A DNA stretch of 63,998 nucleotides, the filler included, from Ionaspis alba (taxonomy: Eukaryota), in NCBI GenBank assembly GCA_964255285.1. It is 9 parts of 9 records of this genome, joined end to end, with 100 filler letters (N's around TTAATTAATTAA, not from the genome) between each part and the next. Parts side by side here need not be neighbours in the genome. Positions count along the whole stretch, not along the records: positions 14,429 to 21,517 come from CAXUUL010000855.1; 8 more parts are not named here. The stretch is one strand, 5' to 3'. How positions within the stretch are numbered: the first letter of the stretch is position 1; the number at the start of each line of letters is the position of its first letter. Positions 3,078-62,682 of this stretch are shown piece by piece. The position numbers and the translations under genes are program-made. The notes beneath the pieces were generated by a model, which ran no database searches, was not told where the DNA came from, and saw nothing but the letters and a program-made list of their open reading frames with translations.

Positions 3078-6000
3078 ATGGCTAAGGTACCGTATGCCCA
3101 ACCTTTAGAGAACGTAGATTCAGTCTTACATATTATAGGTCGCGTCTGGAGGGCCTCGACCAAGGAATGACTTGGGTGTAAATAGTCGGCAGCCGCCATC
3201 ATGGAAAGATACTGCAAAGAGTATACTAGCAGTTCCAATAGATGCCGTCAAGAAAGGGCTATTACAAGAGAAGGAGAGCAGCCAGAGAAAAGACATCGAT
3301 ACTCTCCCTTCGAGAGTTGCCTCAGCCTCATTCGAGGATTCGCCGGCGAAACGGAGAAAGACGGGGTCAAACCGCAAATCGCTAGACCCTTACGAGATTG
3401 ATGATCTTGACGAGCTTGGTGGCGCCGACAGAACGGTGTCCCGTATAATTTCAGTTTCTCAAATTTCGAGTCGTGCCCCGTCTTCCAAGGACCAACGATC
3501 TGGATCTGCACTACCGCACCGACTGGCTAGGGGAAGTTCCAATGAATACAAAAAGGTCGAAGGCTTGATGAATAGTAATTCATATATCAAACACAAAAGC
3601 TTCGTAGCAGACGATCAGTCATCTTCCAACCTTGGCCACTCCATGCCTTCTGGCACTTCTCTTGAATCACCGATCAATATCACCCTTGAGGAAGCAAGAG
3701 AAAGACCAAAATATAGGGGCACTGCTAGGCTTAGTGGAGCGATATCGAAACAAGCAAGCAGCGACATGAGGCGAGGTTATCTGGAAACAAGCCATCGGCG
3801 GCCTTTCATCAATGGTTCTGCGCCAACAAAACCCCACGCATCGTTAATGACCGGGATGGAACACAGACCGGGTAAAATGAGTCCCGAGCTCAGGGACAGC
3901 TTTGTTCCCATGAGCCGGAAGCCTCGCACTTTAGATATAACCACCAGCTCTGACGAGCTTGCCGACCCAGACGACCTTGAATACGGATCAGTGACTCGAC
4001 TCCCTTCTGCAAACCAAGTAGGAGCGACCGGCAGAATCCGCGCAAGTCCAGCCAAAGAAGCTACTACTCCAGAGGACATCTCTGATTCAGAAGACCGCGG
4101 TAACATAAAACCTACAAAATTTGTTGACTCCCACCGAAAGAAAGTAGTCATGAGGACCGGCAAGATCGGTCTCGACCGGGAAAGGGAAAATGACTTTTCG
4201 GCGCTCAAAGTGAAAACAGTCATCATGAACGGTCTTCTTGAATCTGAAAAGAATGATCCATCTATAAGATTCACGGATGATAGAAAGTGTTTAGATATTT
4301 TCGGGGGTGATACTAGCCAAGGACTTTACGATGAGCGTTTGAGGGTACAACTCGATAAAGTGCATTCAATTGAATGGGCACAAGACTGTGCAAAGATCCG
4401 TCTGAATATGGCAAGGGCATTTCCCGGTGGCGAGAAGTCCTACTTTGAGTTCACTTCAGAGCGTGACGCATGCATATTTGCAAGGACTTTGATAGATGAA
4501 CCGGCAGCGAAGTCTGTGAGGGGTAAGAAAATAGACAGGCAAGTTAAACTACATATTCGCTGTCCTACCACGCTTACCTATCTCGCAGTACGTACATGGA
4601 GAAGACCTTCCAGAAGGCAGTATCCGATCACTCAATGTCGCGCATATCTCGCGTGCATAATGTGATCGATCATGATATTGAGTTACAAAGCATGGTTAAG
4701 CGGAAGGTACGACGAGACCAAGCAGATCATCTCGTGGTGGATGATGAGGAGACCAACAACAAACGTCGACGAATACGTGATAAGCTTCAGGATGTGAATG
4801 GTCACTACCACGAAACAGGAAACGACTATTGTCTTCCCCGGATGGCCTCTGGTCCAGGAGACAATCAAGGTAAACTCATACAGGATAGCGATACTGCCAG
4901 AGTATTCAAGAAATATACAAATCAATGTTCACCGGGTACGGACCAGGCAACAAGAGTGGCCGCAATCATCAGCCAGAATCGAGCTCCTCACTTGACCAGA
5001 TCTCGGGTAGCATCAGCAACAGCTACCCCAAAGCATGTTGGCCCAACGACGATCGCTGACGAACATTGGGAGCCTATAAGGTATTCGAAAGTCAACGACT
5101 TGGGGCCCAGGTGGAAGAAGCCCCTGTGGTATCCCCAGATAGGAAGAAAGAAGACCACAGTTGAATGGAAGGACCTGGAGCGTCTGGATGATGGAGAATT
5201 TCTGAATGACAATCTCATTGGGTTCTATCTGCGATATCTTGAGACTAGGCTTGAAGAGGAGGATCCAGCTCTGGCAAAGCGGGTGTACTGGTTCAATACG
5301 TTCTTTTTTGCAAGTCTCACGCAAACTGCAAGAGGAAAAGGAAGAATAAATTACGATGCAGTCAAAAAATGGACACGCAACGTTGATATCTTCAACTTTG
5401 ACTATGTCGTTGTTCCTATTAACGAGTCGGCCCATTGGTATATTGCCATTATTTGCAATCTTCCTGCTTTGGACCGTGGGCTTGCTACAACAGGACATGA
5501 GCCTCAGATGTCTCCCTCTCCTCCCCATTTCGAAACACTCGACGACTCTAATGAGATCGAGACCGAGGAAGCTCCACGGACTCCACCATTATCCGCCACC
5601 CACCGAACAGAGATTCCTTGCAATGAGGCCGAAAAGCCCGAAGAAGAGCACACTCGAGAATCTTTAGCCGAACTACATATACACGACGGTAGCACGGTTT
5701 CTAATAAAGAGAAAATCAGGGCCCATTCTCTTCACGACGCCGACGAGATTCTCGACTCTGATGATGACATGGATGTCCGTACTTCCAAGGGAGATATGAA
5801 AAATGAAGTCGTGGATGACCCAAGCCCCGACTCGGCGGTAGAGCTTGACGACGTCGTGGTGAAAGCAGTATCAGAGAGCAAACTGGGCTCTCAGAAGAAA
5901 GGCAAGCGCAAGTCTAATCCGCCAATCAAAACATTGGATCCAGAGCAACCCGCAATCATTACCCTTGACTCTCTTGGAATCGCACATTCGCCCACCATCA

Positions 6001-6887
6001 GAGCTTTGAAAGACTATCTTCATGCTGAAGGTGCTGACAAGCGCGGTGGTATGGTATTCGACGACAGCAACATCAAAGGATGCACGGCGAAGCAGATTCC
6101 CCAGCAGGACAACTTCTGTGATTGTGGACTGTTTCTTCTTGGTTATATGGAACGATTTCTTAAGACTCCGAAGGAGTTCGTCACTAAGATCCTGCAGCGC
6201 GAATTTGACGGACAAAGGGACTGGGCAAAGATGGAACCAAGTGCCATGCGTACTAATATCAGAGAACTAGTCTTAGGCCTTCATGCCGAACAGGAGGGTC
6301 AGACAGTGCCGAAAAAAGAGCTGTCCACGACGGTCTCGGATCAGAGAAAGGGTGGAGAACAGCATTCTCGAACTGTCCAGGTCACCAAAAGTAAGCCAAG
6401 TGCAACTGAGGCAGCTACAGAAAGCACTTCTATACGCTCAAGGACCAACTCCACTGAGGAAGTACAAGACGCAGTGCCTAAGACGAGGCAACAAGCTCTC
6501 GACAGTGCTTCTCAAATCGATGCGCTAGATTCAGCGCTCCACGTGCAGGCGCTCAACAGAGCCGACGAGTCAACTTCACGAAACCTTGTCCGACAAGCTT
6601 CGCCTATCAATATGGACGAGCTGGGCGAGATGATTATACCTGATAGCCAGGAGGGCAAGATGCCAGAGCTCCCACCGGCACACCCAGCGTCCGATACAGA
6701 GCATCCTGCCACAAGCGACGGCATTGAAGTTCGGATCGAGAAGCGTGCATCAACTCCTCGTCCGCCCACGCAAGGCAAGCCGCACGCACAAGAGGGACGA
6801 ACAGCCCGATCACCAAGGAAGGCAAAGGAAAGAAAGGTGCCAAGTCGGCCCAGGGAAAATCAGGATGTGATTGCGATAGATGGATGA
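3078..6887 (+). CDS. ULP2: Ulp2-like SUMO/ubiquitin-like protease (peptidase C48) with a long disordered N-terminus; further 5' exons may lie in 2460-3020
   Basis: Motifs FLNDNLIGFYL, FNTFFF, VVVPINESAHW (catalytic His), ITLDSLG and PQQDNFCDCG (catalytic Cys). Start CACCATGG at 3078; introns 3087-3138 (GT-AG) and 4539-4588 (GC-AG). Confidence 0.85.
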
Positions 6888-7118: not shown

Positions 7119-7218
7119 NNNNNNNNNNNNNNNNNNNNNNNNNNNNNNNNNNNNNNNNNNNNTTAATTAATTAANNNNNNNNNNNNNNNNNNNNNNNNNN
7201 NNNNNNNNNNNNNNNNNN
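7119..7218. other. Artificial contig-joining linker N44-TTAATTAATTAA-N44
   Basis: Palindromic six-frame stop linker, repeated identically at 14329-14428, 21518-21617, 28704-28803, 35874-35973, 43039-43138, 50198-50297 and 57355-57454. Confidence 0.98.
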
Positions 7219-14149: not shown

Positions 14150-14428
14150 GGGGTTTGGGAGAGAAAAGGGGAGGGAGTTGGGTTTTATGGGAGGTTTTTT
14201 GAATTGAGAGGGAGGTGCTGATCTGATAGGTTCTTTTCTTTCTTTATACCCCTGTTGGTTTTTAAGATAGATAGATTGGAGAGTTGGAAGCGTCTTTACT
14301 TCTTCTGCTGTGAGCTGGTGGGGTGCGANNNNNNNNNNNNNNNNNNNNNNNNNNNNNNNNNNNNNNNNNNNNTTAATTAATTAANNNNNNNNNNNNNNNN
14401 NNNNNNNNNNNNNNNNNNNNNNNNNNNN

Positions 14429-15317: not shown

Positions 15318-16003
15318 TAGAGGATTCGAATGGGATGATGGCGTAATGGGGTGAGGTGGCATTTGTAAGGCGCTGGGATGCTCGGTATGGGGAGCATAAC
15401 GTGGCTGTTTTCTTAGGGTTGTGGTCTAGGATGGCATTTGCTCCGAGTTGTGAGCTAAGCCACCGGTCCCTAGTTGTGGTCCTATAATCAGGCTCGGGCC
15501 TTTTTCTGCCAAATACAGATGATATTTGTTGTTGTTGTGCTACAACCAATCGAGCTAGCTTGGGCTTAGATCATTAAGACAACAGTCTGATTCATGATTT
15601 ACAAATCATATATTACAATAATCATCCGCGAACATGCCTTAAAGTTCTTCCTTATTTCCTTAACATGATGATCTCGTGCTCTCGCCCAGGCACTCCCGGG
15701 AGATCTGCTAATCCGCCACCACCAACTCTATCCAGAGTGGCAGTGCAAGGCTAACCGTGAACGCCATGCATACGATGTGGTACAATCATGAGTAGCCTAG
15801 CAGGCTCGTCGACGGTGAGCCTGAAATATTACTCGGCCAGAACACCCCTCTTCATTCATGTCAGAATTCCGATTCACACAAATACAATTTTCTCAAATGC
15901 ATACACCGGATACTTCAAGATATGCTACATTGATACAATGGCCTTACGATCCCAGCAGATAGCACTACCAGCAAGACCATGTTTGAAGAGTTGAGCAGCA
16001 GTC

Positions 16004-19000
16004 ATGGCCCTTGTGGCAGCCAAGTCCGTAAAGCTCAAGCCTGAGACCGTGCTCGTACAAGCACTGCATGACTACGGGCTGGTACTCACCGACGAGCAGA
16101 AGGCTCGGTTGCGACCTCAAACTGGTGATCGCGCTCCAGACCCTTCTGCCGTCATAGCACTGACGGTCTCGATTGATGAGGAGAATTGTAACCGCAGAAG
16201 CCGTTGTGTGGGGACACGACTCATCAGCTTTCTGGAATCAGTCCAACAATTCACGAGTATCGTCGACACTTTGGTCAGCTCCCACCCGGAGTTTGCAGCC
16301 TTGATATGGGGGGGTGTCAAACTGGCTATGCTTGCGGCTAATAACTACTCCTCTTATTTTGATAAACTATCTACCCTGCTAATGAATATTGGGCGGACGA
16401 GTCCTCGACTTGGTGACTTTGGGGCATTATATCCGTCTTCGGAGAGACTACAGGCTTTACTTTGCGAATACTATGCCGTTGTTGTCCGACTGTGCAAAAA
16501 GGCAATGGAGTTCTCAAGAAGATCTGGTCAGTTTGTTCCCTTTCCGTTCACACACTTGCTCCTGCTTTGCGCACTCCTCGTTCACCCTCGGTTTCATGTT
16601 GTTCCCAAACTTACACAATTCAGGTTTATCACAGTTCACATCGGCTTTTACCAGGCCGTTTGAACTAACCTTTGAGCCTCTTCAGAGGGATCTCGAGAGG
16701 TTCAGCCGTGAAATTTGTACTGAGGTTTCGCTTGTCTCAAAACGATTGCAGCTTGAGGAGATCAAGTTTCAAGCGTCAGAGCGGAAAGCAGCATCGACTT
16801 ACAGAGGGATAGGCACAACGCTCCGGCAGTTCTCGAATCAGGAGCGCCAGGCCGCACAGGAATGGCGACTTCAGGCTGAAGTGCGTCGTGCCAGAAACAT
16901 GAAGATAGCTGTTCTGAATGCACTTTCGGTTTACAACCACCAAACGGCCTAGAAGAGAGCTCGCAAGACATGTCTTACAGGCACCGCTAAATGGATGGAA
17001 AAGCGCCCGGAATTCCAAGCGTGGATGAAGGGCACAAACTCATCAGCTTTGTGGTGTACCGGAAAGCTAGGCGCCGGGAAGACTGTCTTGAGCGCAGCCA
17101 TGATTGCCCATATCATCAAAGAGGTATCTCCTGAACATACTGTCAGCTACTTCATGTGCAGATACGATGATATTGAATCGCTGAAGGCCAGAACAATATT
17201 CGGAAGTATTGCAAGACAATTCCTGAGCGATCTCCCGGTGGAAGATTTTTCTGAACTTCAGCAATTTGCCGAAGGGGTTGTTCCAGACACGGATCAGATC
17301 CTGGATCTACTGCCAAATCGACTTCAACAAGGCCGCAAATACTTCATTGTTGTTGACGGTCTAGACGACTGTGAAGAGCATGAGGCAAACGAAGTATTGC
17401 TAGGATTGACACAAATTCTCCAAAGAGATTCTTGTGTCTTCAAACTGTTTTACACTAGCCGCCCAGGTGTACTTGACCAGAATCTATGGCACATGCCCAG
17501 TTGCATGCGAGTACGCATGTTGTCCACGGATGTCAACTCTGACATAGCCCAATTTGTCGAGGCATCACTCGAACAGCGCCTACAGGACGGACGACTCCAA
17601 TTAGGAGACCCCAACCTTATACTTATAGTCAGGGACGTCCTAATTAAACGTGCTCACGGAATGTTGGTATCTTGATTCCCTTGCCTTACCAGTTTGATTA
17701 TGCTGATAATGTTTTACCAGGTTTTTATGGGTTGTCTTCCAAATTGAATCAGTTTGTGCTCAGACCTCAGACGACGAGATCCTCAACACACTTTTAAATC
17801 TACCAAAAAGTTTACCAGAGACTTTCGATCGTGCTCTTTTGCGGATACAAAAGAGGGACATCCCTAGTGTCGGATGTTGTCGTAGGCTGTTCATGCTACT
17901 CGCAGCAGCTAAAAGACCGTTGATTACAGAGGAGCTTCGTGAAGCACTTGCTATCACAGTCGGCCAAAAGACCTGGGAGCCTGGGCGGTTGATCACTGAT
18001 ATATCCAAGGTGCTTGCTTCGTGTGGAAATCTGGTGGCAGTAGATGAGGAAGACTCCACAGTCCACTTTGCACATCACAGCATCAGACAGCATTTGCTGT
18101 CTAATACTGTTACAGTTTCACTATCGCAGTATCACATCAATCAGGCAGAGAGTGAAACTGAGATGGGCAACATCTGCGTGACATACTTGGGATTAGACGT
18201 TTTTGCCGGTCAGATCACGAGGAGCACACCAGTGGTAGCAACGCCTCTGAAAATAAGAATGCAGGACGTTCCGACTGCCATTGTGAAAGAGGCACTGCCC
18301 ACGAACACTATCGTGAATCGACTAGCTTTGAGACTTCTGAGAAAGCAATTATCTTCAGGGTCATCACAGCCGCTGTTACCGCAAGATGGCCAGGAACATG
18401 ATGAGGAGAACAAAAGTGAGAACTATTCCTTTGTGCATTATGCTCGAAGCTATTGGCTATTCCATAGACCTGAGTTCAAGGTCGGAAATGAGCAGCTTCA
18501 GCACACATGGCGTTGTCTCTTGACGGACAATGCCAACCTCTCCTGTGTACCATGGACTGTCGAAGATATGATGAACGTTTCGACAATTATTTTAGATTGG
18601 ATCGTGGAGAACGAGCACCAAAGCCTCCTAGACTATATATTGGCCACGAACCAATCTTTGACCACAATGGATATTGTTATTCGGACCATCAGCGTCAAGA
18701 AATCGAAATTCACAACGATGATATTGCAATCTCGAGATTGGCCGACAATTGTCTTACTCAACTTGTCCGTTTCTCTTGCAGCACATGGCCAAGTTGAATT
18801 ATTGAAATCTATTCCTGGAAATATGGTAGACAAAATCGATTTGCCAACACTACACTCATGTGGCGTAGTCATTCCAGAGAGCGCGAAGGAGAAGGCAAAA
18901 GCTTGGAGGGAACGATTCAAATTTCCGCTCCCTCGAGAAACTTTCAGCGCCTTGACTATTGCGGCAGTGCTAGGTCGAGTGGATGTCATCAAGTACATAA

Positions 19001-19401
19001 CATCGCTTCCGCTCCCGCCCGATTTGGACACAATGCAAATGCAGGCGGAGGTGAATCGAGCGTTCAGATACGCTGCCATGAACGATCAACACAACGTCAT
19101 GTGGTGTTTGATCGACAGCGGGCGACTGCATATTCATCACTGGCTCCCGGAAGATGCGTCAGGTTGGGTACCATTGACATATGCAGTTGCAGTGAGGTCT
19201 TATGAAATGGTTGCAAAGATCATAGAGCTTATAAAAGCAGACCCTGTGGAACGTTATTCCTATTTGAATTATGATATAGCATGCTCTGTTGCCGAGGGAC
19301 CCGGACTTGAGATGATAGCATTACTCTTGTACAAGGAGCGCAAGAACGTACTGAGGGATGCAACTCGAGGTTTTTACCAAAGGGAAGATGGGAGTTTTTA
19401 A
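16004..19401 (+). CDS. Fungal NLR-like STAND protein (N-terminal helical domain, NACHT, winged helix, degenerate ankyrin repeats) with one in-frame TAG at 16950-16952; may be a pseudogene
   Basis: Walker A GKLGAGKT, Walker B FIVVDGLDDC, AHGM|FLWV, LPKSL, VHFAHHSIRQHL and ankyrin-like ALTIAAVLGRVDVIKYI. Introns 16527-16623 and 17663-17720 restore the frame. Confidence 0.85.
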
Positions 19402-19423
19402 TGGTGTCCAGACCGCGCGAGTT

Positions 19424-21517
19424 TCATCGCCCAAATGCCAACCGACTCTGCCCCTTCTCCATACTCTTCTTCCCCTCGATACCACCCGGCTTCTTCGGCC
19501 CTCGCCTCGATACCACGGTGTTTACTTGGCTGCTTCCGCTCATGGCAGAGTGATGCGCAGAATCCGTAGTCATGGACGCCCTTACGGGCACCGTTGACCG
19601 CTCGGAAGCTTCGAGGTCTTTGGCAAAGTGCCAATCCTCATGCTCGGCTTTGCTGACGAGGGGATGGGTAGTGGAGCATTGCGGGCAGAGATAGGTGTCA
19701 AGTAAAGACTGGTGAGAAGGAGCTGGGACAGCTCTGGCGTTCGAGACCAGTTCATGAAGACCAGAAACCTGGTCCTGGCCAATCTCGTTGGAAGGATCAT
19801 CGCCGCCGTCCTCCTTGGGCGAGAGAGACCCAGATCGAGGTGTCGGCCCTTCCTCGCCAGCTCCAAATTCTTCATCATACTCTTCTCCGCTTGTCTCGCG
19901 TCGCGTGAAGAACTTTTGGATACTACCATCATCCACTTTCCGTCTCTTCTCTTGGCGTCCGTCTTCAATTCCCGAAGTCTCAACTTCGGAATCTCGCTTA
20001 GTAGGTCTCATAGCCTTTGCCTCATCTCCCTTGACCAGGAAACTGCTAATACCACGATTTTTAGTGGGCCCATCCTCAAAGCCACCAACACTTAGCGACA
20101 AGTTCGCGCATGGCCATGCCCGCCCATCAACGATGATTTGCCCTAGCAAGGTCTTCGCCAATTCAAAAAGTAGAGCTTCGTCGATAGCCTTCCCAGACGG
20201 GATAGGAATCTGACGAGATCTCATCTGGCCCCCTTGCCGGTGGTGTAAATTCATAGTCTTCGGCCGTCGCTTGTTCTCCAAGATTCCTTCCTCTACTAAG
20301 CGAGAGAAGATATCTGCAGCAAAGATCCGCATCCACCGCACCGCTTGTTCGTAGGTATTGATACTGGGACGAAAAGACTTAGCAGAAAGCATGGACTTGA
20401 TTTGGGTCCTCGAATTGACTTCGCTATGGTCTTCGCCACGGATGATCTGATAGACCCAAGAGCCGGTGTCGTCTCCCAGCTTAGATTTTAGCTGCTCAAT
20501 AGGAATGGGAAGCAATTCCTTCACCTCTTCCGTCCCGAATGTAGAAGCTACCTGCTCGCCTAGTTTACCCCCTAGATTGCGAATCTTGGTGAATCTAAAG
20601 GAGCCGAGAAACTGCTGTATAGCTCGATTACGAACTATAGTCTGCTGATTGGGTTTCTTGTGCCCTGAGCCTAGCTTCGCGATCATCTTGTTCCTAGCTA
20701 TACCAGCGGAGCAAGTATATTTGAGTGTCTTTCGTATGGCTGCTCGAACTGAGCGCACAATCTCGGAACCTATCAGCATAACAATATCATCCCAGTCGGG
20801 ATCATCATCTTCAGTCTCTGTAGTATCTAGATCCACGAGCGCATCTGTATCCCAATCCAATGCCGTCGTCGGCGGCCTCGGCAGATTTTCCGTAGGATCA
20901 TCATAAGGTGCTGGCCCACTTAGCTCCGGAAAGCGTTCCATCAGTATAGAATGGATCTGTGCCGACAGATCCAGGAAGACCTCATCAATGCTAGCCTTCT
21001 CCACCTTTTGAATAGGCGCGGGTGGAAGAACTTCTTTTATACACGCCAAAATCCTCCGAGACTGCAATCGATAAGGGTCAAGAGAGACCTTGTGCGTAGC
21101 AATCTGCGCAAATGCATCCGGATGATATGCCCATTTCTCATCTCCCTCCTTCCACGTCGCGACATGCTGCATGATGAGATTCGGACACAGTTTCTTGGCT
21201 TCTGTTATGTTGATGTGCCGGTTCATGCCGAAGGCTCTCGCGGGATAATTTATAGCGATCAGGCCCTGCCATTGCTGCTCTTCTCATCAGCTACTTTCGG
21301 TTACAGCCACAAATTCGGGAATCAGCCCACGCACTTGAACGGCAAGTGGTTGGTCCTCTGGCAGTTCCAACCGCACCATCTCACATTGAGCGTAGAAAGC
21401 ATCGAGATCAATGTGAGCAATCACGCGCAGGGGGCAGGAGGTCGAAGAGAGGCTTAGTTGTGAGAGATGCTTGTAGGTGAAGCGGGATTTGCGACGGCCG
21501 ATGCTGCCGGCAAGGGA
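19424..21517 (-). CDS. RAD30: Y-family DNA polymerase eta, 5' end at or beyond the contig break
   Basis: Motifs HIDLDAFYAQCE, AINYPAR, ASIDEVFLD, SAGIARNKMIAK, LGGKLG and a C-terminal UBZ finger (CPQC...EHEDWHFA). Intron near 21275-21332. Confidence 0.93.
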
Positions 21518-21750
21518 NNNNNNNNNNNNNNNNNNNNNNNNNNNNNNNNNNNNNNNNNNNNTTAATTAATTAANNNNNNNNNNNNNNNNNNNNNNNNNNN
21601 NNNNNNNNNNNNNNNNNGTTCAGTCGGACCCCAGTTGCCCCGGCTCCGATTATTGACTTCGGTGACTTCGTCATTATTATAGCTTAACTCCGAATTCTGC
21701 ACCTTCATAAGCAGCACGATAAAGATGGAGTGATAGCACGATCATCCACA

Positions 21751-32589: not shown

Positions 32590-35500
32590 ATGGCTACAAC
32601 AAAATCTCTTCCGCGACCATCACTCCCACCATGCGCGCCTCCGAGTGCCGCATTGCCACCACTACCCGTACCAAAAACTCGAAAGAGCCTCGGGAACCCA
32701 CAGCTTTCCGGCCTTCCTTCATCAAACTCACAGACTCCCTCAAAATTAGCGATTCGAACACCATCCAGAGCCACGATACCGGTTGCCGCACAGAAACCGC
32801 ACCATACAGTTTCTACCCCCGCAATACCGACTCTGAAGACCACCGCCAGTGGAATTGGTAAACCGACAGGCCCAACTCCCGAACGAACACTGAGAAAAAC
32901 AGTCAGCATTGCTTCGTTTCCACAGCCTCCCAAATCTAGTTCCAAGATCGGGACCTTGCCTGCACGACCCTCGCTCGGCGGATCAGGTACCTCGTCGGCT
33001 GCGGGATCGTACAGGCGTGTCTCGGATGACTCAATTTGCTCTGGAACACCCGTGGCCAGTGTGAGATCGACTAAGCTCAAGCCTAGCAATGGACCAGTGG
33101 CTCAAAAACATTCGTATGTTGGCAACAGCGCGCCAACCCTCTTGAATGGCAGTGGCGATGCCGTCTCGATATCCGCCGGACTAGGCCATCGAGGCTCGGA
33201 TGGTCTCCTCAGTCTCCCTTCGCCAGATCATAGCCGAGTCTCTTCTGCTAGAGACTCTTATTCTACCACGGCCACCACATTTGAAGATATAGATGATGCA
33301 AATGCCACGAAAGCTCGGGACGGCACAAAGAACGTCTCGAGCCTCAGAAAGCCGTCCTCGGATGACGAGAACGAGAAGGGGAACGTGATTGTTAGTGTTA
33401 GAGTCCGGCCTGAAGCAAATGGTAGCAGTCCAACAGGACATGATTGGGTGATTGATGGCTCGAAGTCTTTGGTCTCTTACAGAGGTCGAGATGGCGGCGA
33501 CTATTTTTACGGTCAGCTTCTCTTAATATTCTCGACAAGTTCTGGTGACTGACTCCTTGAGTAGACAACGTCTTCGAAGTCAAGGATCAGAATGCAAAGA
33601 TTTATGATGTAACGACCAAACGCCTAGTCCGGCGCGTCATGGAAGGCTACCATGGCACGGTGTTTGCATATGGAATGACAGGGAGTGGGAAGACCTATAC
33701 GATGCAAGGTACCCAGAAATCACCCGGTGTTATGGTCAATGCCATCACGGACTTGTTTGGGTATATTCGCGAGACGCCCAGTCGAGAATTTTTGTTACGA
33801 GTGAGCTATCTCGAAATTTATAACGAAAAGATCCATGATCTGTTGGCAGCAGCCGAAGACGACAAGAATGGAGTGCGAAATGCTCAGCAGGAGGAGATCA
33901 AACTTCACGAAGATGGAAAGGGAGGCGTCTATGCGGCGCCGTTGCGTGAAGAACTTGTCCAGAGCCCGAATGAGCTGAAGAATGTCATTGCCCGCGGCGC
34001 AGCTGTCAGACGAACCTCGAGCACCCAGTACAATGCTGACAGCTCTCGAAGTCACGCCGTCGTTCAGGTTACCGTGGAGAGTAGATTGCGTCGTGGCTTC
34101 GATGCCTATGGTCGGGAAGATAAGCGAGCCCCTATTGCACCGGGAGGCGTCCAAATATCGACTCTCAGCCTGATCGATTTGGCTGGATCCGAGCGAGCTG
34201 CCTCAACCAAGGATCGTCAAAAGGAAGGCCAGCATATCAATCAGAGTCTGTTGACCCTCGGGAAGGTGATTGCCGGTCTGTCGGCAGATAAAAGCAAACA
34301 TTCGAAGCATGTGCCTTACCGAGAAAGCAAACTGACTCGGTTACTGCAGCCTGCTTTATCTGGGAAGTCGCTCGTCAGCATTCTGTGCACTATACAAATT
34401 GGAACATTAGGGACTGCTGCTCTAGCAAACACTCACACAGCTGAAACGCTGAATACATTGAAATTCGCAGCACGAGCGAAGAACAACATCGTCAGTCACG
34501 CAAGGAAGGCTGAGGCTGCGATGACGAGCGGCTCAGAGCCTGGTTTTATTGAAATTTACCAGAAGCAGATCGAGGAACTGCAGCAGAAGCTCGCAGCCAA
34601 GAATCAGGAGGCGAAGGAACGCAGAGCAAAGGAGGATGACGATCAAGATGAGAAGAAGCACCATGATTATATGCGTGAACAGAACACTATTCGTGCCATT
34701 ATTCAAGGCATGACGGACAATCTGAATCGCCTGATCGTCTCTTCGCAGTCGAAAGGCGTAAATAGTGATGACAAGACTGCATCAGCAAGCTTGTCACCAT
34801 TGACACCCTCTAACGACTTCGGTATACGATCTCTCCGGTCCTCAGCAAGTCACTCGACTCTGCGCCGCACCACCTCCGGGGCATCAGCTTCAACCGCGAC
34901 GGTCGGTATCAAGCCCAACCTACAATCCTCCGATGCAGCATTCGAGTCCGGTCTAGATGGCAATACACAACCTATTTCAGACGGCACCGCGTCGCCGCAC
35001 GAGCAGCTCCAAGCCCTCCGTCGCGACCTCGCCGAGAAAAATCGCTACATTCTCGTCCTCGAAACTCGTGTCCATCAAGCCCGACGCACGAGCCAAGCCC
35101 GCAGCTCCATCCTCGCCTCCCCTACCGCCTCGACCTCTTCCCCTATCACCTCCACCTCTCCTACACCAGACTCCTCCACCTCCACCCTACGCGCCCAACT
35201 CGCAGAAAAAGACTTTCAAATCTCCGCTCTCCTCGCCACCCTCAGCACCAAAGACACCGAACTCGATGCCCAAACCACCCAAATCGCAACCCTCAACGAC
35301 CAGATCCGCGTCCGCGACGCCAAAATCACCTCCCTCCGCGTCCGCGTCACCGACCTCCGCGACCGCTGCGCCGATCTCACCCGCCAGAGCACGACCTACC
35401 GGCTCGAAGCGCAAAAACTCGGCGAAGAAGCCGCAAGTGCCGGAGACCTCGATATGGCTGCTTTCCCGGCCCCGCCTACGCCCAGCTTGTCGTCTTCGTC

Positions 35501-35873
35501 GCTGCATAATCGGCACGAGGCGAGACCGAGCAACGATAGCTCGATCGCGACGAGTAATTCTGCGAGCTTGTCGCCCGTCGAACTGTTGTCGTCGCCGGGG
35601 ATGGGATTGGGGTTTCCGCGCGTACCCGCCAGTCCGACCAAGCGATGGGAGTTGAACAAGGAGATGGAGGCTGGGAGTGGGGTGGTGGAGAAGAAGAGTT
35701 CGCCGCCGAGGGGGAGTAGGGAGAGTATTGATCAGTTGGCCCATGTGCTTGATTTGATGATTCAGGAGCGTGTGGAGAAGGGCGAGGTGGTGAGGAGTAA
35801 GGTTAGTGGTAGTGTGAGGGTTGTGAGGGAGAGGAGGCAGGGGAGTTTGGGCAGTTTGGGCAGTGTGAGGGGG
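32590..35873 (+). CDS. Kinesin-7 family motor (KipA/Kip2-like), 3' truncated; intron near 33512-33564
   Basis: Motifs VIVSVRVRP, P-loop GMTGSGKT, YLEIYNE, SSRSH, DLAGSE, INQSLLTL and HVPYRESKLTRLLQ. Long Ser/Pro-rich N-terminus and coiled-coil tail. Confidence 0.92.
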
Positions 35874-36418
35874 NNNNNNNNNNNNNNNNNNNNNNNNNNN
35901 NNNNNNNNNNNNNNNNNTTAATTAATTAANNNNNNNNNNNNNNNNNNNNNNNNNNNNNNNNNNNNNNNNNNNNGATCTAGGAGCATTGTGATAATGGGCG
36001 GTAAACTTCCTATGAAGGGAAGATACCTAACTGCTCAAAAGGGCTTTTCGGAGTCAACTGGTGAGTGTCAGGTGAGCTATTTCCGAAACCTAGCCTAACT
36101 GATTCCTAGCAGGGCTCGGATTGGGTAAATTAGAGCTTGAAACCAACAAAGATATTGTGATTTAGGTTCTTGGGCCACGAACCATTATTGGACCTGTTTC
36201 TCTCCTGTACGTGGATGCCAAGATTAAAGCTTAGACCAGATTTACCCGCTCTGCCGCGCCGGGCCGTTAGTCCAGATGCCCCTTGAACCATTCCCCGCGC
36301 CCCCGCAGGCACTCACCCCGCAATCTTCGAATGTTGAAGATATGTTGCGGGAAACACCTTGGACAGTTATGAGGGAGACCTCCTTGCAGTGTTCTCTAAC
36401 ACCGCTATTGCAGTCAAG

Positions 36419-41927: not shown

Positions 41928-43138
41928 TTAGTTAGACCTTGGGGTTTAGCAGGCTCTTTGAAAGCAGGAACTATATTGCTTGCTCTTGGAGCTCTCGCTT
42001 CTCGAATGTCATTGATTCCATTAGTGGAGCACAGCCTTTATTTATCATTTGATCGTTCAGCATTAACCTTACATAATGTGATATGCTGACGACGATACTC
42101 GGAAGTTTGTGATCTCGTTTCCAAGCAAAATTGTGATGTTTATGAATCAATTCCGTATCAATTTTCTGTAATTCTGCCCGCCTGCACAAGATTGCTGCGA
42201 CACGTTTCGGCCTCGGAATAACTACGAATGATATTTTTCGGGTTATATATTCTCCGTTCGGACCACGCCCACTTCCTGGGCCGTGCTCGATCTTTTAAAT
42301 CTGCCATTTCCCTCGTCTTTCTATCTCAACGCTCTTGCGCCTACTATCACCAAGCTAGATGTAAAGACCGCTCGTTTTGTCCTAAAGATAAGCAATTCGG
42401 TGGCGGCGCCCTATCAAGCCGACTATCTTGAGCTCCCCAGACCTACACACTGGCACTGCCACTCTCTAGAAAATCTGACTTCGAGAGCGAACAAACTTTC
42501 TCTTTTATCAAAATATCATGTCACGGCAATTTTATTCTATTTTCAACGAAGTGTCCATTCACACGGCCAAGTATGACAGATACAGCCGGTATAATAAAAA
42601 TGTTTTATATCGCTGCTGTTTCTGCGGACTGCAAATCTGCATATTACATTAAAAAAAAACGATGCAGGCGACGGCGCACACGTCATGAACAATAGCGATA
42701 AAGATATAAGAGGCACATTAGGGCAGTCTCTTTTTTATTTATATCCATAAGATCTGTCGCACAGACTAAAGCCAGACGACCTGAACGAATACGTGCCAGC
42801 ACAGTGCCGTCAGCCACAACAGCATCAGATTCTCCTATACGGTCAAGCTCCATCATCGTCAATCAGCTCCGCCGAACCCAGTCCTCCCGCAGACGCAAGT
42901 GCCGCCCTATTATCGAGTCCGATTTCGACTCCAGCTCCGGCTCCGATAACGAAGATACCTCCCTCTTCCTTCCTCAATCCCGGTCCCACCAGCCCCAAAA
43001 GCGCCTCCAATACTCCTACCACAACACCTCCTCTCCCANNNNNNNNNNNNNNNNNNNNNNNNNNNNNNNNNNNNNNNNNNNNTTAATTAATTAANNNNNN
43101 NNNNNNNNNNNNNNNNNNNNNNNNNNNNNNNNNNNNNN

Positions 43139-44678
43139 TGCTACTTGCCTCTTCTTTAAAGTTGGGACTGTGGTCCCTCTTGCAACTACCGGTGCAAAGA
43201 TGTTGCCCTCCATGGCGACTCCGAGGGAGAGAGGTACGACATCGAGTAGAAGAAGATCAGCAGTATCAGCGGATGTAGCCTTTCCAGACAGTATACCGGC
43301 CTGGACGGCCGCACCGTAAGCAACAGCTTCATCAGGGTTGATACTCTTTTCGAGCTTCTTGCCATCAAAGAAGTCGCTGAGGAGCTTTTGTATCCGAGGA
43401 ATACGAGTGGACCCTCCAACCAAAACAATCTCATCGACCTTGCTTTTGTCCAAGTTGGCGTCCTTCAGTACTTGCTGGACTGGCTCAATGGTACCATTGA
43501 AAGCCTTAGCGTTGAGGTCTTCGAATCGGGCACGGGTAATCTGCGCATTGAAGTCCTCACCCTCGAAGAGAGAGTCGATTTCGATAGTGGTCTGAGTACC
43601 ATTTGAAAGTGTACGCTTGGCACGCTCGCAAGCTGTCCGTAGACGTCTGAGGGCACGAGGGTCATCTGTGATATCTTTTTTCGTCTTGCGCATGAACTCT
43701 TTCTTGAAATGTTCGAGAAGATTGGTGTCAAAATCTTGACCACCAAGATGCGTGTCACCAGCGGTAGCCTTGACGGTGAAAACGCCACCCTGAATATGTA
43801 GGAGAGACACATCGAATGTTCCTCCACCAAGATCGTAGATGAGAACATTCCGTTCCTTCTCAGACTTGCCAGATCCCAAACCATAGGCGATGGCGGCAGC
43901 AGTGGGTTCGTTGATGATACGGAGGACTTGGAGATCGGCGATAGCACCAGCGTCTTTAGTCGCTTGTCGCTGGTTGTCGTTGAAGTATGCTGGGACAGTG
44001 ATGACGGCCTTCTTGACTTTTTTTCCGAGCTTTACTTCGGCGACCTCTTTCATCTGCAAGTACTCCTTAGCCAAAGCCCAATCGTGTATTTCGGGGCTGA
44101 CGAACCTTCATCAAGACCATGGATGAGATCTCTTGGGGGGAGAAGGTCTTAGTCTCCTTCAAGTACTCGACCTGCACCATTGGGCTTCCGCCTTGGTCCA
44201 CAACCTTGAAGGGCCATGACTCGATATCCTTCTTGACCGTAGGGTCGTCGAATCTTCGTCCAATCAGACGTCTGGTCTTTTTGTCAGCCGCAGGGTTCAA
44301 CCCAATTGCACGTGCCACGGCAGCACAAGTTGCTCATACTTGATGTCAAATATCGTGTTGGTCGGGTTCATCGCAGCCTGATTCTTCGCCGCCTCGCCGA
44401 TCAATCGCTCTTCGTCGGTGAAGGATACGAAAGATGGAGTTGTGAAGCTTCCTTGCTCATTGGCAACTACGATAGGCATTAGCATTTACGCCCTCCTGCT
44501 TGGCAGTATGATCCGAGGTCACCGTACTGATCTCAACGTTGGTGCCCTCATAGTTGGCAACACAGGAGTAGGTGGTCCCTGATGGGCCATAATCAGTGGA
44601 ATTCCTGGTATCGCGAATCCATCGTGTGCCCATACCTAGATCGATACCGATCGCACCTTCATAGACTTCTTCTGCCAT
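43139..44678 (-). CDS. SSB1: Ribosome-associated Hsp70 (SSB type), four short introns, 3' truncated
   Basis: [64 protein letters not shown] and [11 protein letters not shown] are SSB-type signatures. Confidence 0.95.
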
Positions 44679-44797: not shown

Positions 44798-44897
44798 NNN
44801 NNNNNNNNNNNNNNNNNNNNNNNNNNNNNNNNNNNNNNNNNNNNNNNNNNNNNNNNNNNNNNNNNNNNNNNNNNNNNNNNNNNNNNNNNNNNNNNNN
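44798..44897. other. Intra-scaffold gap of 100 N with no linker; also at 53745-53844 and 60411-60510
   Basis: Plain N runs lacking TTAATTAATTAA. Confidence 0.97.
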
Positions 44898-53689: not shown

Positions 53690-53899
53690 AAAAAGCCCGC
53701 TGCAATTTTTCTTTCCGCACAAAGACCAAGCCCACTTTTGTCAANNNNNNNNNNNNNNNNNNNNNNNNNNNNNNNNNNNNNNNNNNNNNNNNNNNNNNNN
53801 NNNNNNNNNNNNNNNNNNNNNNNNNNNNNNNNNNNNNNNNNNNNAAAAAGCCCGCTGCAATTTTTCTTTCCGCACAAAGACCAAGCCCACTTTTGTCAA
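53690..53899 (+). repeat. 55-bp exact duplication flanking an N gap (assembly overlap artefact)
   Basis: 53690-53744 is identical to 53845-53899. Confidence 0.9.
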
Positions 53900-57533: not shown

Positions 57534-59384
57534 TCACGAAACCTCCTTAATCCTACACTTCCAACCCGACTCCTGACTCAGCAGCGGCAAACTATGCCCA
57601 CAAGTCAGTCCATGATCCCTCTAACCCAACTGTTCTGGAAAGAAGCAAAGAAAGACTCACCTAGCACCCAAACACCACCCCAACTCATTCCCCTTGATCT
57701 TCTTCGCAATCCTCACCTCCCTATCCGCCGGCATCTCATAGCCAGTATGCAACAACGCGAGCATAAAATTCAAATCCAAACAATGTTCCGGCCGATCACG
57801 CAACTCCTTCAACGCGCCCTCCACCCCCTCGAAACTGCCCCAGCTGCTCTCACCCCCACATACCTTGGCGGTCAAGTCCCATAACTCGCGGATGGTGAAC
57901 GACTCGGGCATTCCGAGCGGCTGCGTCCGGTCGTAGAAGTAGCTGAAGATGTAGACGTCTTCGCGGGCGAAGGTCGCTTCGAGGGAGGGTTGGTGCACGC
58001 CGCCGAAGGAGCAAGGCGCGAGGTCGCATTTTGTGTCTTTTTTTAGTATTTTCTCCGCCAGTCCGCGACATTGCGCTGCGCTGCCAGTAGCTGGTCCGGT
58101 CATTTTGACAGCGACAGTGCTTTTGTCGTCGAGCGTGACTTTGACTTCGGAGGTCATGTTTGGAGCTATACAAGGGTTTTCTATCGGCTGCGAAGCCCAT
58201 GCGGGATCCGTTGCGCCGTGCGCTTCTTTGTAGGCTTCTACGACAACTTTGTGGATGGATTCGCGCGCCGACATGAGTCCGTAGCCGAGATGGGAGTGCT
58301 GGTAGAGCTCGAAGTCGCGGCCGCCGAAGGTGAGTTTGTATTTGTGGTCGCCCTCCGCTAGGGTGGCAGGCATGCCCCGTGAGGGGCTTTTGAAGGTCGG
58401 CTGGAAGACGATTTGCGTGGAGCCGCCGCCGAGATCGAAGACAGCTGCTGTGGGGGATTTGTCGGGGCCGCCGATCTTGCCGAGGAGGTAATTTGTTGTA
58501 ATCCAAGCGTAGACGCCTTCGTCTTTGCCTTCCATGACAACGACTCCATCTCTCTCTTTCGAGACAACGGGAAAGGGGTAGACGGTTTCTAGACGTGTGC
58601 GAACTGCTTCGAGGATCTTGTCGCTGAGCTCGGGACCGAGTTTGCGAAGGCCGGCGGTGGCTTTGACGGCGACTGGTGAGCAGGACCGCAATTTCTCGGG
58701 GACCGTTGTCATAGCCACATCCATGAGCATGTCCAGACTTTTGGCAGCTCCTTCCGCATCGGCTCCAAATGAGCTCAATCCTGATCCTCCTTTTTTGGGC
58801 TCCGTCATTTTGAATTCCTCATGTTCGAGCTCGGGGGTGGCTCCACAATTGTTGAATCGATAGACATGTATCCGCGACCCAGTGCTGCCAGCATCAATCA
58901 TTAAGGCATATTGTATCAATGGTTTATCCGAGGAGTAGGACTTCGAGCACTTCGTTGTCCCCGTCGCTGGATCTGAAGAAATGGGTCCGGATCCGCCATG
59001 ACCTGTTCCCACACGAGTCGCTCAGCCTAAACCCTGTGATCTTGAATGTATGTGGAACAGTAGCGACATACCCTTGACTAACTCCCTAACATTCGCCCTT
59101 TCTCCCGGCGCAAGTAAAAAGAATAGCAGGACAAAAAATGCAAGAATCGCCCCAGCCTTCAAGTACCTGCTGCGCTGACTCTGCGTCATCCACGCGTCTC
59201 TTAAATTATCCACCGCGGCGATTGAACCGTTGGCAGAACCGTTACTTCGGTGTCTGTCGGCTTTCTCGTAGGGGTCGTGAACGTTGTTGCGGGTAGGTAG
59301 GGAGACTGAACGTCGGCGGGGTGTGCCAAAACTTATATATGACCATAGACTAGGACGACGGCGAGCATCGACCGATGTTGACAT
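57534..59384 (-). CDS. GDA1: Golgi guanosine diphosphatase (GDA1/CD39 NTPDase), three exons
   Basis: Type II transmembrane anchor and apyrase motifs IDAGSTGSRIH, KATAGLR, EGVYAWITTNY, DLGGGSTQ and ELGWCLGA. Confidence 0.93.
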
Positions 59385-60214: not shown

Positions 60215-60541
60215 GGGAGGGAGGTTCGAACGACGGGAAAGGCAATGCTGAGTTGAGGACGTACGAGCGCCATTGACGGGTACGGTTGAGGTGATCGACT
60301 GCTCGGCCGCATAGTATTACTCGAGTGACTGTCTGAGACGCACCTCAGGATCCAGGTGAAGCACTATGCTATGGAGCCCTGTTGGCTTGGCTCCAAGTCC
60401 AATGCTCTCANNNNNNNNNNNNNNNNNNNNNNNNNNNNNNNNNNNNNNNNNNNNNNNNNNNNNNNNNNNNNNNNNNNNNNNNNNNNNNNNNNNNNNNNNN
60501 NNNNNNNNNNGCCGGTCTTCCAACAATGCGACAATGGGATT

Positions 60542-62682
60542 CTATATCCGTATAACATCCACTCTTGCCCTCTCAAAGATCTTATGACCGACCATTGCTT
60601 CTCCAGCACCGCGCTCCTCTTCCGTGATCTTCCTGGGGTATATCGTCATCTGAGTATACGTCCCTGGGCCTCTGCGCTTCGATACCGGTCCAGGATTTAC
60701 AACCAAAACGCTTTCCACGACCTGTTCCAAGATTAGAAGCCGGGAACCCTCTGGGGATAATAACAGCTTACCTTTGCAAATGGTGATAAGGCACTAGGCA
60801 ATATCAACACATCTGGTCGAACATTCAACCACTCTCCGAGTTTCAGATAGCTGATATCCAGAGGCATTCCAGTGGCGACTCCTTCTTCAGTACCGGCTTT
60901 AGGCAGTATCGTCCTATTGACCGGCGGAAACACGGGAAAGAAATGCCGTTGCTGAATGACATGTCGAGGAAGGCGATCCAAAATATTATTCTCTTTTGGC
61001 TTTCCGACAACCACTTCCTCCCGCCGCAGGTCATATAGGATATCCTGAGCCGAGATACCGACGACGATCTCGTTGAGGGAAATGGTGACCGGATTGGACA
61101 CAGTGCTCACTTGTTTCGGCAGGCCCAGCTCTTTCTTTGCGAACGGTTCTTGCGGCCACGAAACGTGCTTGTTCACTGCGTCTCGGACAGAGGGGATGAC
61201 AATGATTCTTATACTCGGGACTGCTTGTGCGAGGCGACGAAGCGGATCACCGACCAGAATTCTGAACGCATCGGTCAATGTTGCTTTGTCTGGCTCGATG
61301 CTGGCGTCATCTGGAAGTTCGAAGTCACCGGTTGCTACCAATGGATGTTCGATGTCGAACAAGGGACCTATGAGGATGAGCACATCCGCGTAAGTCTCGC
61401 TGGCTTTTTCGCAGAGGGCGTGGAGAGGCTCGAAATCTAGATTGTCGTCTGCTGTGTATGGACCTGCAGACACGAGGATGTTCAGCGCATCTGTAGCTGT
61501 CCCAGAGCTATCGGCTTCGATGCCCAGACGCTCATTGTTCGCATCGATCGTTGATGGCAGTGACGCAGCGGGAGGAAGAAGCGGTATTTCAAAGACCTCC
61601 GTTGCAGCGAAATAGTCGCCCGAAGCATTGATACCACGGAGAGCGACGATTTGGCCAGGGAAGAACTCATGAGAGGGAATAGAGTCGACCTTGAGTGGAA
61701 CTCGCACTCCAGCTCCACTGCGTCTTGAAGTTTCCAAGACCAAGGATGCGATGTTCAGCTTGCTTTCAGGCATATCACATGCGATTCGTCCCACAGCAAC
61801 GATTTCACTCGTACTTTTACTCGCCGAGTTGCCAAAAGTCGAGTCTTCGAGAGTGTGATGTGCTTGAATGAGAGTCATGAATTCATCAATCCGGTCGTCA
61901 AGTACCTCAGATGCTTGAGAAAGGTGCGTGGCCAAGGGTTTGTAGAAGAACTTCTTAAGATCAGTGTTGGCAGTTAATTTCACACGAGATTCCGCAGGCG
62001 GCGCAAGAGGGGGCTCGTGAGGATTCAGATGATCGTTGAGAGTCTCCACGATCTGTCCAGCATTTTGTCGGTCCGAGAAAGGGACGGCCCTTCAAGCAAT
62101 AATGAGATAAAGATCATGCAGGATGGAACTTCAATCCTTACTTGACACCATTTGAGATATTGTCTGTTCTGCCATCGGTTGGCGAACTCTTAGTGGTTGT
62201 CTTGTTGACCTTGGGTACTGCTGGTGTTTCAAAGGTCGCCTTGCGTTTGGATGCGCCGTTCGTAGTTGCAGTTCGAGGAGTCTTAGGCGTAAGACCGTCC
62301 AACCTAGAAACACGTTGGCCATGCTTTGTAAAGCCCCCAGAATGTATACTCACATGCCGAAAACATCATCGTTGCCGCCAGCTGCTCGAGGTGTAGCATG
62401 AATTCCCCGCTTGTCTGCACTCCTTGTGTGTGATCGACCTTTGCTCTCTCGTTCCAGCATCTCCTGAATATCCTTTTTGAAAGCTCGCACAGTCGGCAAG
62501 TTTAACTTAGTCTCCTCCGATCCCATCTTGATGCAGTAGGACTCCCATTTGTAAAACAACTCTTGTGGGGATATGGAATGTAGGCGCAGAATTGATTGCA
62601 GTTCGCCTAGGATGTCAGGGGGGATTGAAGTCTCCGCTTGTACGGAGAAAAAGCTGTTGAGGTCTTCTGTATTGTTCGTCAT
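60542..62682 (-). CDS. POL12: DNA polymerase alpha-primase B subunit, four exons
   Basis: Motifs LFYKWESY, VGRIACD, FFPGQIVALRGIN, AGPYT, NPVTISLNE, PDVLILPS and VNPG. Confidence 0.94.

Follow-up and report, generated by a model that had tools for sequence, protein, structure and literature searches.

Gene Organization and Domain Composition

The stretch of Ionaspis alba DNA analysed here over its whole length of 63,998 nucleotides (GenBank assembly GCA_964255285.1; "the window") carries a three-exon gene for a NOD-like receptor (NLR), located on the plus strand at 16004–19401 and interrupted by one in-frame TAG (Table 1). The gene comprises 1080 codons. Its spliced coding sequence (CDS) of 3243 nt contains stops at codon 284 (TAG) and at the terminal TAA only. 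An earlier reading of the same DNA, made without database searches (hereafter, the sequence-only reading), had reported an NLR with a single TAG, its A at 16951, and an in-frame ATG at 16995, and had found no other lesion and intact splice sites. Inspection of the sequence, Pfam matches and the reconstructed CDS confirm these points, and both introns have GT..AG ends.

The frame around the stop reads ...LNALSVYNHQTA*KRARKTCLTGTAKWME..., where the asterisk marks the TAG. The N-terminus of the protein, MALVAAKSVKLKPE..., is collinear with the full-length homologues P0006, P0009 and P0010. Removal of intron 1 restores the frame, with a length across the junction that agrees with that of the homologues, and splicing of intron 2 restores the family motif GMFLWV. 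With this start and both exon junctions the protein regains collinearity with full-length homologues of 860–1258 aa, including the positions of GKLGAGKT, FIVVDGLDD and GMFLWV.

Judged by its predicted domains, the gene is a canonical fungal NLR with a DUF7708/Goodbye-like N-terminal domain, a NACHT domain, a winged helix and ankyrin-like repeats, an architecture listed among the common fungal NLR types in the part of PMC12258605 that deals with them. Exon 1 encodes a DUF7708 domain (Pfam E 1.2e-15; 58.1 bits vs. a cut-off of 25), and the Goodbye model matches the same exon at 20.3 bits, below its cut-off of 24.8. Exon 2 matches NPHP3_N (E 5.7e-32) and, below the threshold, NACHT (23.7 bits; cut-off 26.7). 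A GPI-inositol-deacylase-type winged helix (GPIID_WHD; 29.1 bits, cut-off 27) is found in exon 3. The C-terminal repeats score under the thresholds of Ank_2 (24.2 bits; cut-off 27.3) and Ank_4 (21.8 bits; cut-off 22.7); ankyrin families are present in the NLR homologues. Residues G146, G149, G151, K152, D244 and D247 are invariant in an alignment of 12 sequences. The last residue of Walker B is Asp, as in 10 of 158 homologues, 138 of which have Glu at this position.

The gene thus has the central NACHT-type NTPase with Walker A and B and the N-terminal effector-type domain of an NLR; what it lacks is an uninterrupted frame for the full receptor, as the TAG occupies codon 284 of 1080. The stop falls in the linker, 10 residues ahead of the NPHP3_N match and 37 ahead of the P-loop. 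It leaves the DUF7708 domain whole and separates it from NACHT, as had been proposed before.

Table 1. Coordinates of the interrupted NLR gene, its sequence elements and other genes of the window.
Feature	Position	Strand	Description
Exon 1	16004..16526	+	Start codon, DUF7708/Goodbye-like N-terminal domain; 174 codons and 1 base
Intron 1	16527..16623	+	97 nt, GTCAGT...CAG; read from sequence
Exon 2	16624..17662	+	Helical linker, conserved L..LS.Y.H...W motif, NACHT (NPHP3_N) NTPase domain; product P0001
Candidate in-frame intron	16881..16952	+	72 nt, GTGCGT...CCTAG; judged coding
In-frame TAG	16950..16952	+	Codon 284 of the spliced CDS; sole internal stop; A at 16951
First in-frame ATG past the stop	16995..16997	+	45 nt after the stop, upstream of the P-loop; T at -3
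Walker A / P-loop	17061..17084	+	GKLGAGKT
Walker B	17343..17369	+	FIVVDGLDD
Intron 2	17663..17720	+	58 nt, GTTGGT...CAG, CTGAT branch site
Exon 3	17721..19401	+	Winged-helix domain, helical region, weak ankyrin repeats; TAA at 19399-19401
DNA polymerase eta ORF	19424-21283	-	IMS, HhH, UBZ and IMS_C domains
DNA polymerase alpha subunit B	60736-62091	-	Marker for host placement
Ulp1-type protease	4548-6887		Housekeeping gene
Kinesin	33561-35921		Housekeeping gene
Hsp70	43094-44107		Housekeeping gene
GDA1/CD39	57660-59021		Housekeeping gene

Presence of the Stop Codon in Genomic DNA

The stop is real in genomic DNA. A 5192-nt contig of run X1, with a mean word depth of 115.4, covers 15800–19600 with no other letters and no gaps. 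Run X2 provides ten contigs at a depth of 2–4 that are at least 99% alike to the gene; one of them, 423 nt long and lying over 16805–17227, spans the TAG with no differences. A16951, singled out by the sequence-only reading as the base to be confirmed in DNA, is therefore an A in the deep contig and in a contig of the second run. Run X3 yielded no contig matching the stretch. Base-calling error is excluded by X1 and X2. Two independent strains are not thereby established: both runs belong to one study and possibly to one strain, and X1 is possibly the source of the window.

A public protein set contains P0283 (226 aa) and P0035 (86 aa), two mechanically called open reading frames (ORFs) that are 100% identical to the window protein and start at ATG 16995. 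This is the start expected if those assemblies, with contigs of 7089 and 3273 nt, also carry the TAG.

The sole listed difference between the runs over the gene is a G>A at 17576 in exon 2, seen in one X2 contig at a depth of 2.1, which may be an allele or an error. Run X1 also contains two short contigs at a depth of 2–3 that are about 89–91% identical to the gene ends (15998–16088 and 19036–19186) and do not cover the TAG. One low-depth X1 contig has a diverged upstream flank. These low-depth contigs suggest that the same sample includes a related strain or species carrying an orthologue.

Ancestral Residue and Homologous Proteins

The TAG column is covered by 145 of the 159 aligned homologues, with Trp in 88 of them, Phe and Leu in 23 each, Tyr in 7, His in 3 and Asn in 1. 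The Trp that the sequence-only reading had given for this position is thus found in the homologue alignment. The closest homologues read ...YNHQTAWKQARK... against ...YNHQTA*KRARK... in the window protein, and the sequence of the nearest homologues at the TAG column is ...STYNHQTAWKQARK.... Since Trp is the commonest residue, a single G>A transition turning TGG into TAG is the likeliest and most economical origin of the stop, and the alignment indicates that the ancestral residue at codon 284 was most likely Trp.

Homologues of the NLR are numerous and distant. Among proteins of 605–2000 aa there were 14 matches, the best with 35% identity; among those of 189–604 aa, 20 matches at E ≤1e-20, the best with 44%. 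Cluster representatives of all lengths gave 8998 matches at E ≤0.001, the best reaching 41% besides the window's own 86-aa fragment, and the JGI metagenome contigs gave one locus with 36% identity. No NLR orthologue above 45% identity was found in these three protein searches and the JGI contigs. The nearest named homologues come from Xylographa bjoerkii (41%), Capronia epimyces (40%) and X. trunciseda (39%). Relatives of a housekeeping gene of the window are found at 82–89% identity, in contrast to none above 45% for the NLR, and such a difference in identity would be the usual picture of lineage-specific NLR turnover.

Sequence Constraint and Mutational Context

Conservation was scored over alignment columns with a conservation of 70% or more. 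The window protein keeps the consensus at 43 of 50 such columns (0.86), compared with a mean of 0.838 (sd 0.071) for 146 homologues, of which 88 score below it. All 7 mismatches are conservative, including the Asp for Glu that closes Walker B. The 797 codons downstream of the stop, with no second lesion and with the 43 of 50 columns kept, show no signs of relaxed constraint. Of 9711 possible single-base changes in the CDS, 430 would create a stop. By our own estimate, the chance that a dead copy still lacks a second stop falls to 5% at about 2% neutral divergence, or sooner if indels are counted. The absence of a second lesion and the kept conservation therefore indicate that the stop is very young or that the gene is still under selection.

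The sequence-only reading had also observed that TGG>TAG may be a change of the type left by repeat-induced point mutation (RIP). The context holds, as the change is CpA>TpA on the other strand; a RIP signature in the gene or the window does not. TpA/ApT is 0.63 and (CpA+TpG)/(ApC+GpT) is 1.32 in the gene, and the ranges over 16 window bins are 0.53–0.76 and 1.18–1.42, respectively. At the usual thresholds of these indices, no RIP signature is present in the gene or in any of the 16 bins. GC content is even across the window (0.46–0.54), and there is no transposable element (TE) or AT-rich flank at the gene. RIP as the cause was rejected on these values for the gene and all bins, while a single RIP-type change can be neither demonstrated nor excluded.

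A Recent Nonsense Allele as the Favoured Explanation

We consider it likely that a fast-evolving NLR of a lichen-forming Lecanoromycete is present here as a recent nonsense allele, arisen by the single G>A that made TAG of TGG at codon 284. The sequence-only reading had listed a recent null allele among its alternatives, and it is this alternative that we now favour. In the mechanism we propose, a G>A transition would have converted the ancestral Trp codon into the stop. Translation would halt after 283 residues and give at most a free N-terminal domain without NTPase or sensor. Nonsense-mediated decay would probably act on the message, whose stop precedes an intron and lies about 2.4 kb from the end. 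Truncation and probable decay of the message would together leave the receptor non-functional in this isolate, and the event would be too young for further decay to be visible.

The disabling lesion itself is present in genomic DNA, as described above. Several observations nevertheless weigh against this explanation. Constraint is not relaxed, as would be expected only if the event is very recent or the gene still in use. The good conservation downstream of the stop suits a null and a rescued gene equally, and one DNA sequence does not distinguish a recent null from a gene that is rescued and functional. Both runs that carry the TAG come from one study and may represent the same strain. Most of the editing-restored stops of Fusarium came from TGG by G>A as well, according to the passages of PMC10776026 on their origin, and A16951 is unpaired in all 4 of 4 predicted RNA folds.

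On balance, the locus most likely holds an ordinary recent knockout allele and not a regulated switch. The headline of the sequence-only reading, an immune receptor gated by editing or readthrough, gained no positive evidence: the host is placed among the Lecanoromycetes, no significant hairpin is predicted, the stop context is not a known leaky one, and the proposed intron would delete a conserved motif.

Alternative Explanations

It is also conceivable, though unlikely, that the truncation itself is the favoured state and is on its way to fixation, with an advantage that lies either in loss of the receptor (for example, an escape from autoimmunity or incompatibility) or in a stand-alone N-terminal protein of 283 residues. 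The clean position of the stop, in the linker 10 residues before NPHP3_N with DUF7708 left whole, would suit such an outcome, and escape from NLR-caused self-incompatibility through inactivating mutations is described in a section of PMC13449251. However, the 797 downstream codons without decay imply that any such state is very young. In the present data it is indistinguishable from a neutral null allele.

We judge it quite unlikely that a translational or splicing bypass yields some NACHT-containing protein. Three routes were considered: readthrough of the UAG, alternative splicing that removes the segment 16881–16952, and use of ATG 16995 through re-initiation or an internal start of transcription. 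For readthrough, Tyr is one of the residues inserted at UAG, and it occurs naturally at the TAG column in 7 of 145 homologues. Known leaky stop contexts have C at +4 or the motif CARYYA, and the AAG AGA that follows this stop is unlike them. Neither a known leaky context nor a stimulatory downstream structure was found: no stable structure is predicted past the stop, there is no Rfam match at E ≤1, and the window contains 0 tRNA genes, hence no candidate suppressor tRNA.

Re-initiation would be served by the in-frame ATG 45 nt past the stop and upstream of the P-loop. Against it, this ATG has T at -3 and follows an ORF of 283 codons, after which re-initiation is inefficient in eukaryotes, and an out-of-frame ATG sits 4 nt upstream. 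Use of ATG 16995 as a re-initiation site is possible but unlikely.

Removal of the stop by splicing would be consistent with a GT..AG pair that spans it in frame and has a fair donor, GTGCGT. The donor at 16881 and the length of 72 nt given for this intron by the sequence-only reading are correct. The segment was nevertheless rejected as an intron: it has no CTRAY branch site and encodes residues 86–109 of P0001, with the conserved L..LS.Y.H family motif that includes L97 (78%) and S101 (88%), so that its removal would delete a conserved coding motif. A CTRAY branch site 8–45 nt from the acceptor is absent from all 55 in-frame GT..AG candidates that span the stop, which is weak evidence, as one of the two real introns lacks it too.

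Restorative A-to-I mRNA editing appears very unlikely. Here, a deaminase of the ADAT type (Tad2/Tad3) would act in sexual tissue and turn the UAG into UIG, which is read as UGG (Trp). Such editing would call for short Tad2/Tad3 isoforms and an Ame1 that can bind Tad3. Production of the full receptor would be limited to the sexual stage, and vegetative hyphae would make nothing or the N-terminal domain alone. For this lichen-forming Lecanoromycete, UAG-to-UGG editing would have to occur in apothecia, with the full NLR confined to sexual tissue, a proposal that we hold to be equally improbable. Its appeal is that the TAG stands at an ancestrally Trp position (88 of 145), in a gene that has no other damage and equals its relatives in conservation. 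Moreover, about 71 genes of F. graminearum require exactly a UAG>UGG correction, as stated in the relevant part of PMC11156358.

The same source, in its account of sequence preference, states that A-to-I editing favours hairpin loops, a U at -1 and a purine (A or G) at both +1 and +3. The sequence-only reading had taken the match of U-A-G-A-A to this motif as support, but every UAG necessarily has U at -1 and G at +1, and these two positions carry almost no information. In the context UAG AAG AGA only the A at +3, a purine as preferred, is informative. RNA folds of 31, 51, 81 and 121 nt are no more stable than shuffled sequences (z of 0.30, 0.71, -0.16 and 0.83), and no significant hairpin was found among them.

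The position of the host is also unfavourable. The passages of PMC11156358 on its distribution report editing for Fusarium, Neurospora, Sordaria and Pyronema, which places it in Sordariomycetes and Pyronema, and the relevant part of PMC11087585 regards Pyronema editing as probably of independent origin. The Eurotiomycete Aspergillus nidulans and the Leotiomycete Botrytis cinerea are described as examined and without A-to-I mRNA editing in portions of PMC11156358 and PMC11087585, and an Ame1–Tad3 interaction needed for editing is said to originate in Sordariomycetes in a part of PMC11087585. Our literature search found no report of A-to-I editing in Lecanoromycetes; the paper that it yielded mentions this class solely when surveying the conservation of residues. 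The main text of PMC10776026 contains no instance of the terms NACHT, NLR or heterokaryon incompatibility. With no positive evidence and a low phylogenetic prior, editing is therefore ranked low.

A sequencing or assembly artefact over a genome that truly has TGG is extremely improbable. The runs that support the TAG come from a single study, the deepest of them possibly being the window's own source, but the contig of depth 115.4 has no other letter at 16951, contigs of two runs are identical across the TAG, against the sequencing error that the sequence-only reading had allowed for, and ORF calls in separate public assemblies start just past the stop.

Host and Genomic Environment

The DNA polymerase alpha subunit B encoded in the window is 89% identical to an ENA protein, 82–83% to proteins of Xylographa spp., 79% to that of Lambiella insularis and 77% to that of Trapelia coarctata. 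By this marker, the host is a lichen-forming Lecanoromycete near Xylographa.

Housekeeping genes for an Ulp1-type protease, DNA polymerase eta, kinesin, Hsp70, GDA1/CD39 and DNA polymerase alpha subunit B lie in the window. The even GC content and the density of housekeeping genes therefore place the NLR in the core and not in an accessory part of the genome. It is not in a repeat-rich island. A search for repeats around the gene found just two 17-nt direct pairs at chance level and one weak inverted pair.

A convergent gene on the minus strand encodes DNA polymerase eta. Its stop is separated from the TAA of the NLR by a gap of 22 nt, so the 3′ ends of the two genes must overlap or share a very short terminator region.

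The window contains 1004 N in all. Paired runs of 44 N occur every ~7.17 kb (7119–7218, 14329–14428, 21518–21617 and on), and three runs of 100 N lie at 44798–44897, 53745–53844 and 60411–60510; none touches the NLR gene. The regular 44-N pairs look like masking and the 100-N runs look like scaffold gaps.

Significance and Comparison with Known Systems

As a plain nonsense allele, the interrupted gene matters little and would be one more case of the rapid birth and death of NLRs in fungi. Its host is a lichen symbiont, and the NLR repertoires of such fungi are little studied. If editing were true, fungal mRNA editing would extend to a class without a prior report, with sexual-stage A-to-I recoding in Lecanoromycetes, and the gene would provide the first example of restorative editing that gates an immune-type receptor, which would be kept inactive at the level of RNA.

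Fungal T-NACHT NLRs with a Goodbye-like N-terminus and ankyrin repeats, described for Sordariales in a section of PMC12258605, have the same domain order as this NLR. Compared with them, the gene studied here is cut by the TAG at codon 284 and belongs to a lichen-forming Lecanoromycete; its ankyrin, NACHT and Goodbye matches fall just below the curated cut-offs, and its best homologue is only 41% identical over exon 2.

The premature-stop-corrected (PSC) genes of F. graminearum, such as PUK1, are restored by A-to-I editing at the sexual stage (treated in parts of PMC11156358 and PMC10776026). They resemble it in that an ancestral Trp codon has become an in-frame UAG while the gene is otherwise intact; here, too, the UAG stands where the ancestral residue was most likely Trp (88 of 145). 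Unlike the Fusarium genes, it is found in a host class without reported mRNA editing, and its stop lies in no significant hairpin.

Several of the 54 curated NLRs of Podospora carry stops, frameshifts or TE insertions that disable them and have intact counterparts in other strains, as stated in the part of PMC13449251 devoted to them. Unlike these cases, the gene described here has no RIP signature, and it lies in DNA of even GC with no TE or AT-rich flank. With these strain-polymorphic pseudogenes (the same part of PMC13449251) it shares a G>A in a RIP-type dinucleotide context and the character of an NLR disabled by a stop while the rest is apparently intact.

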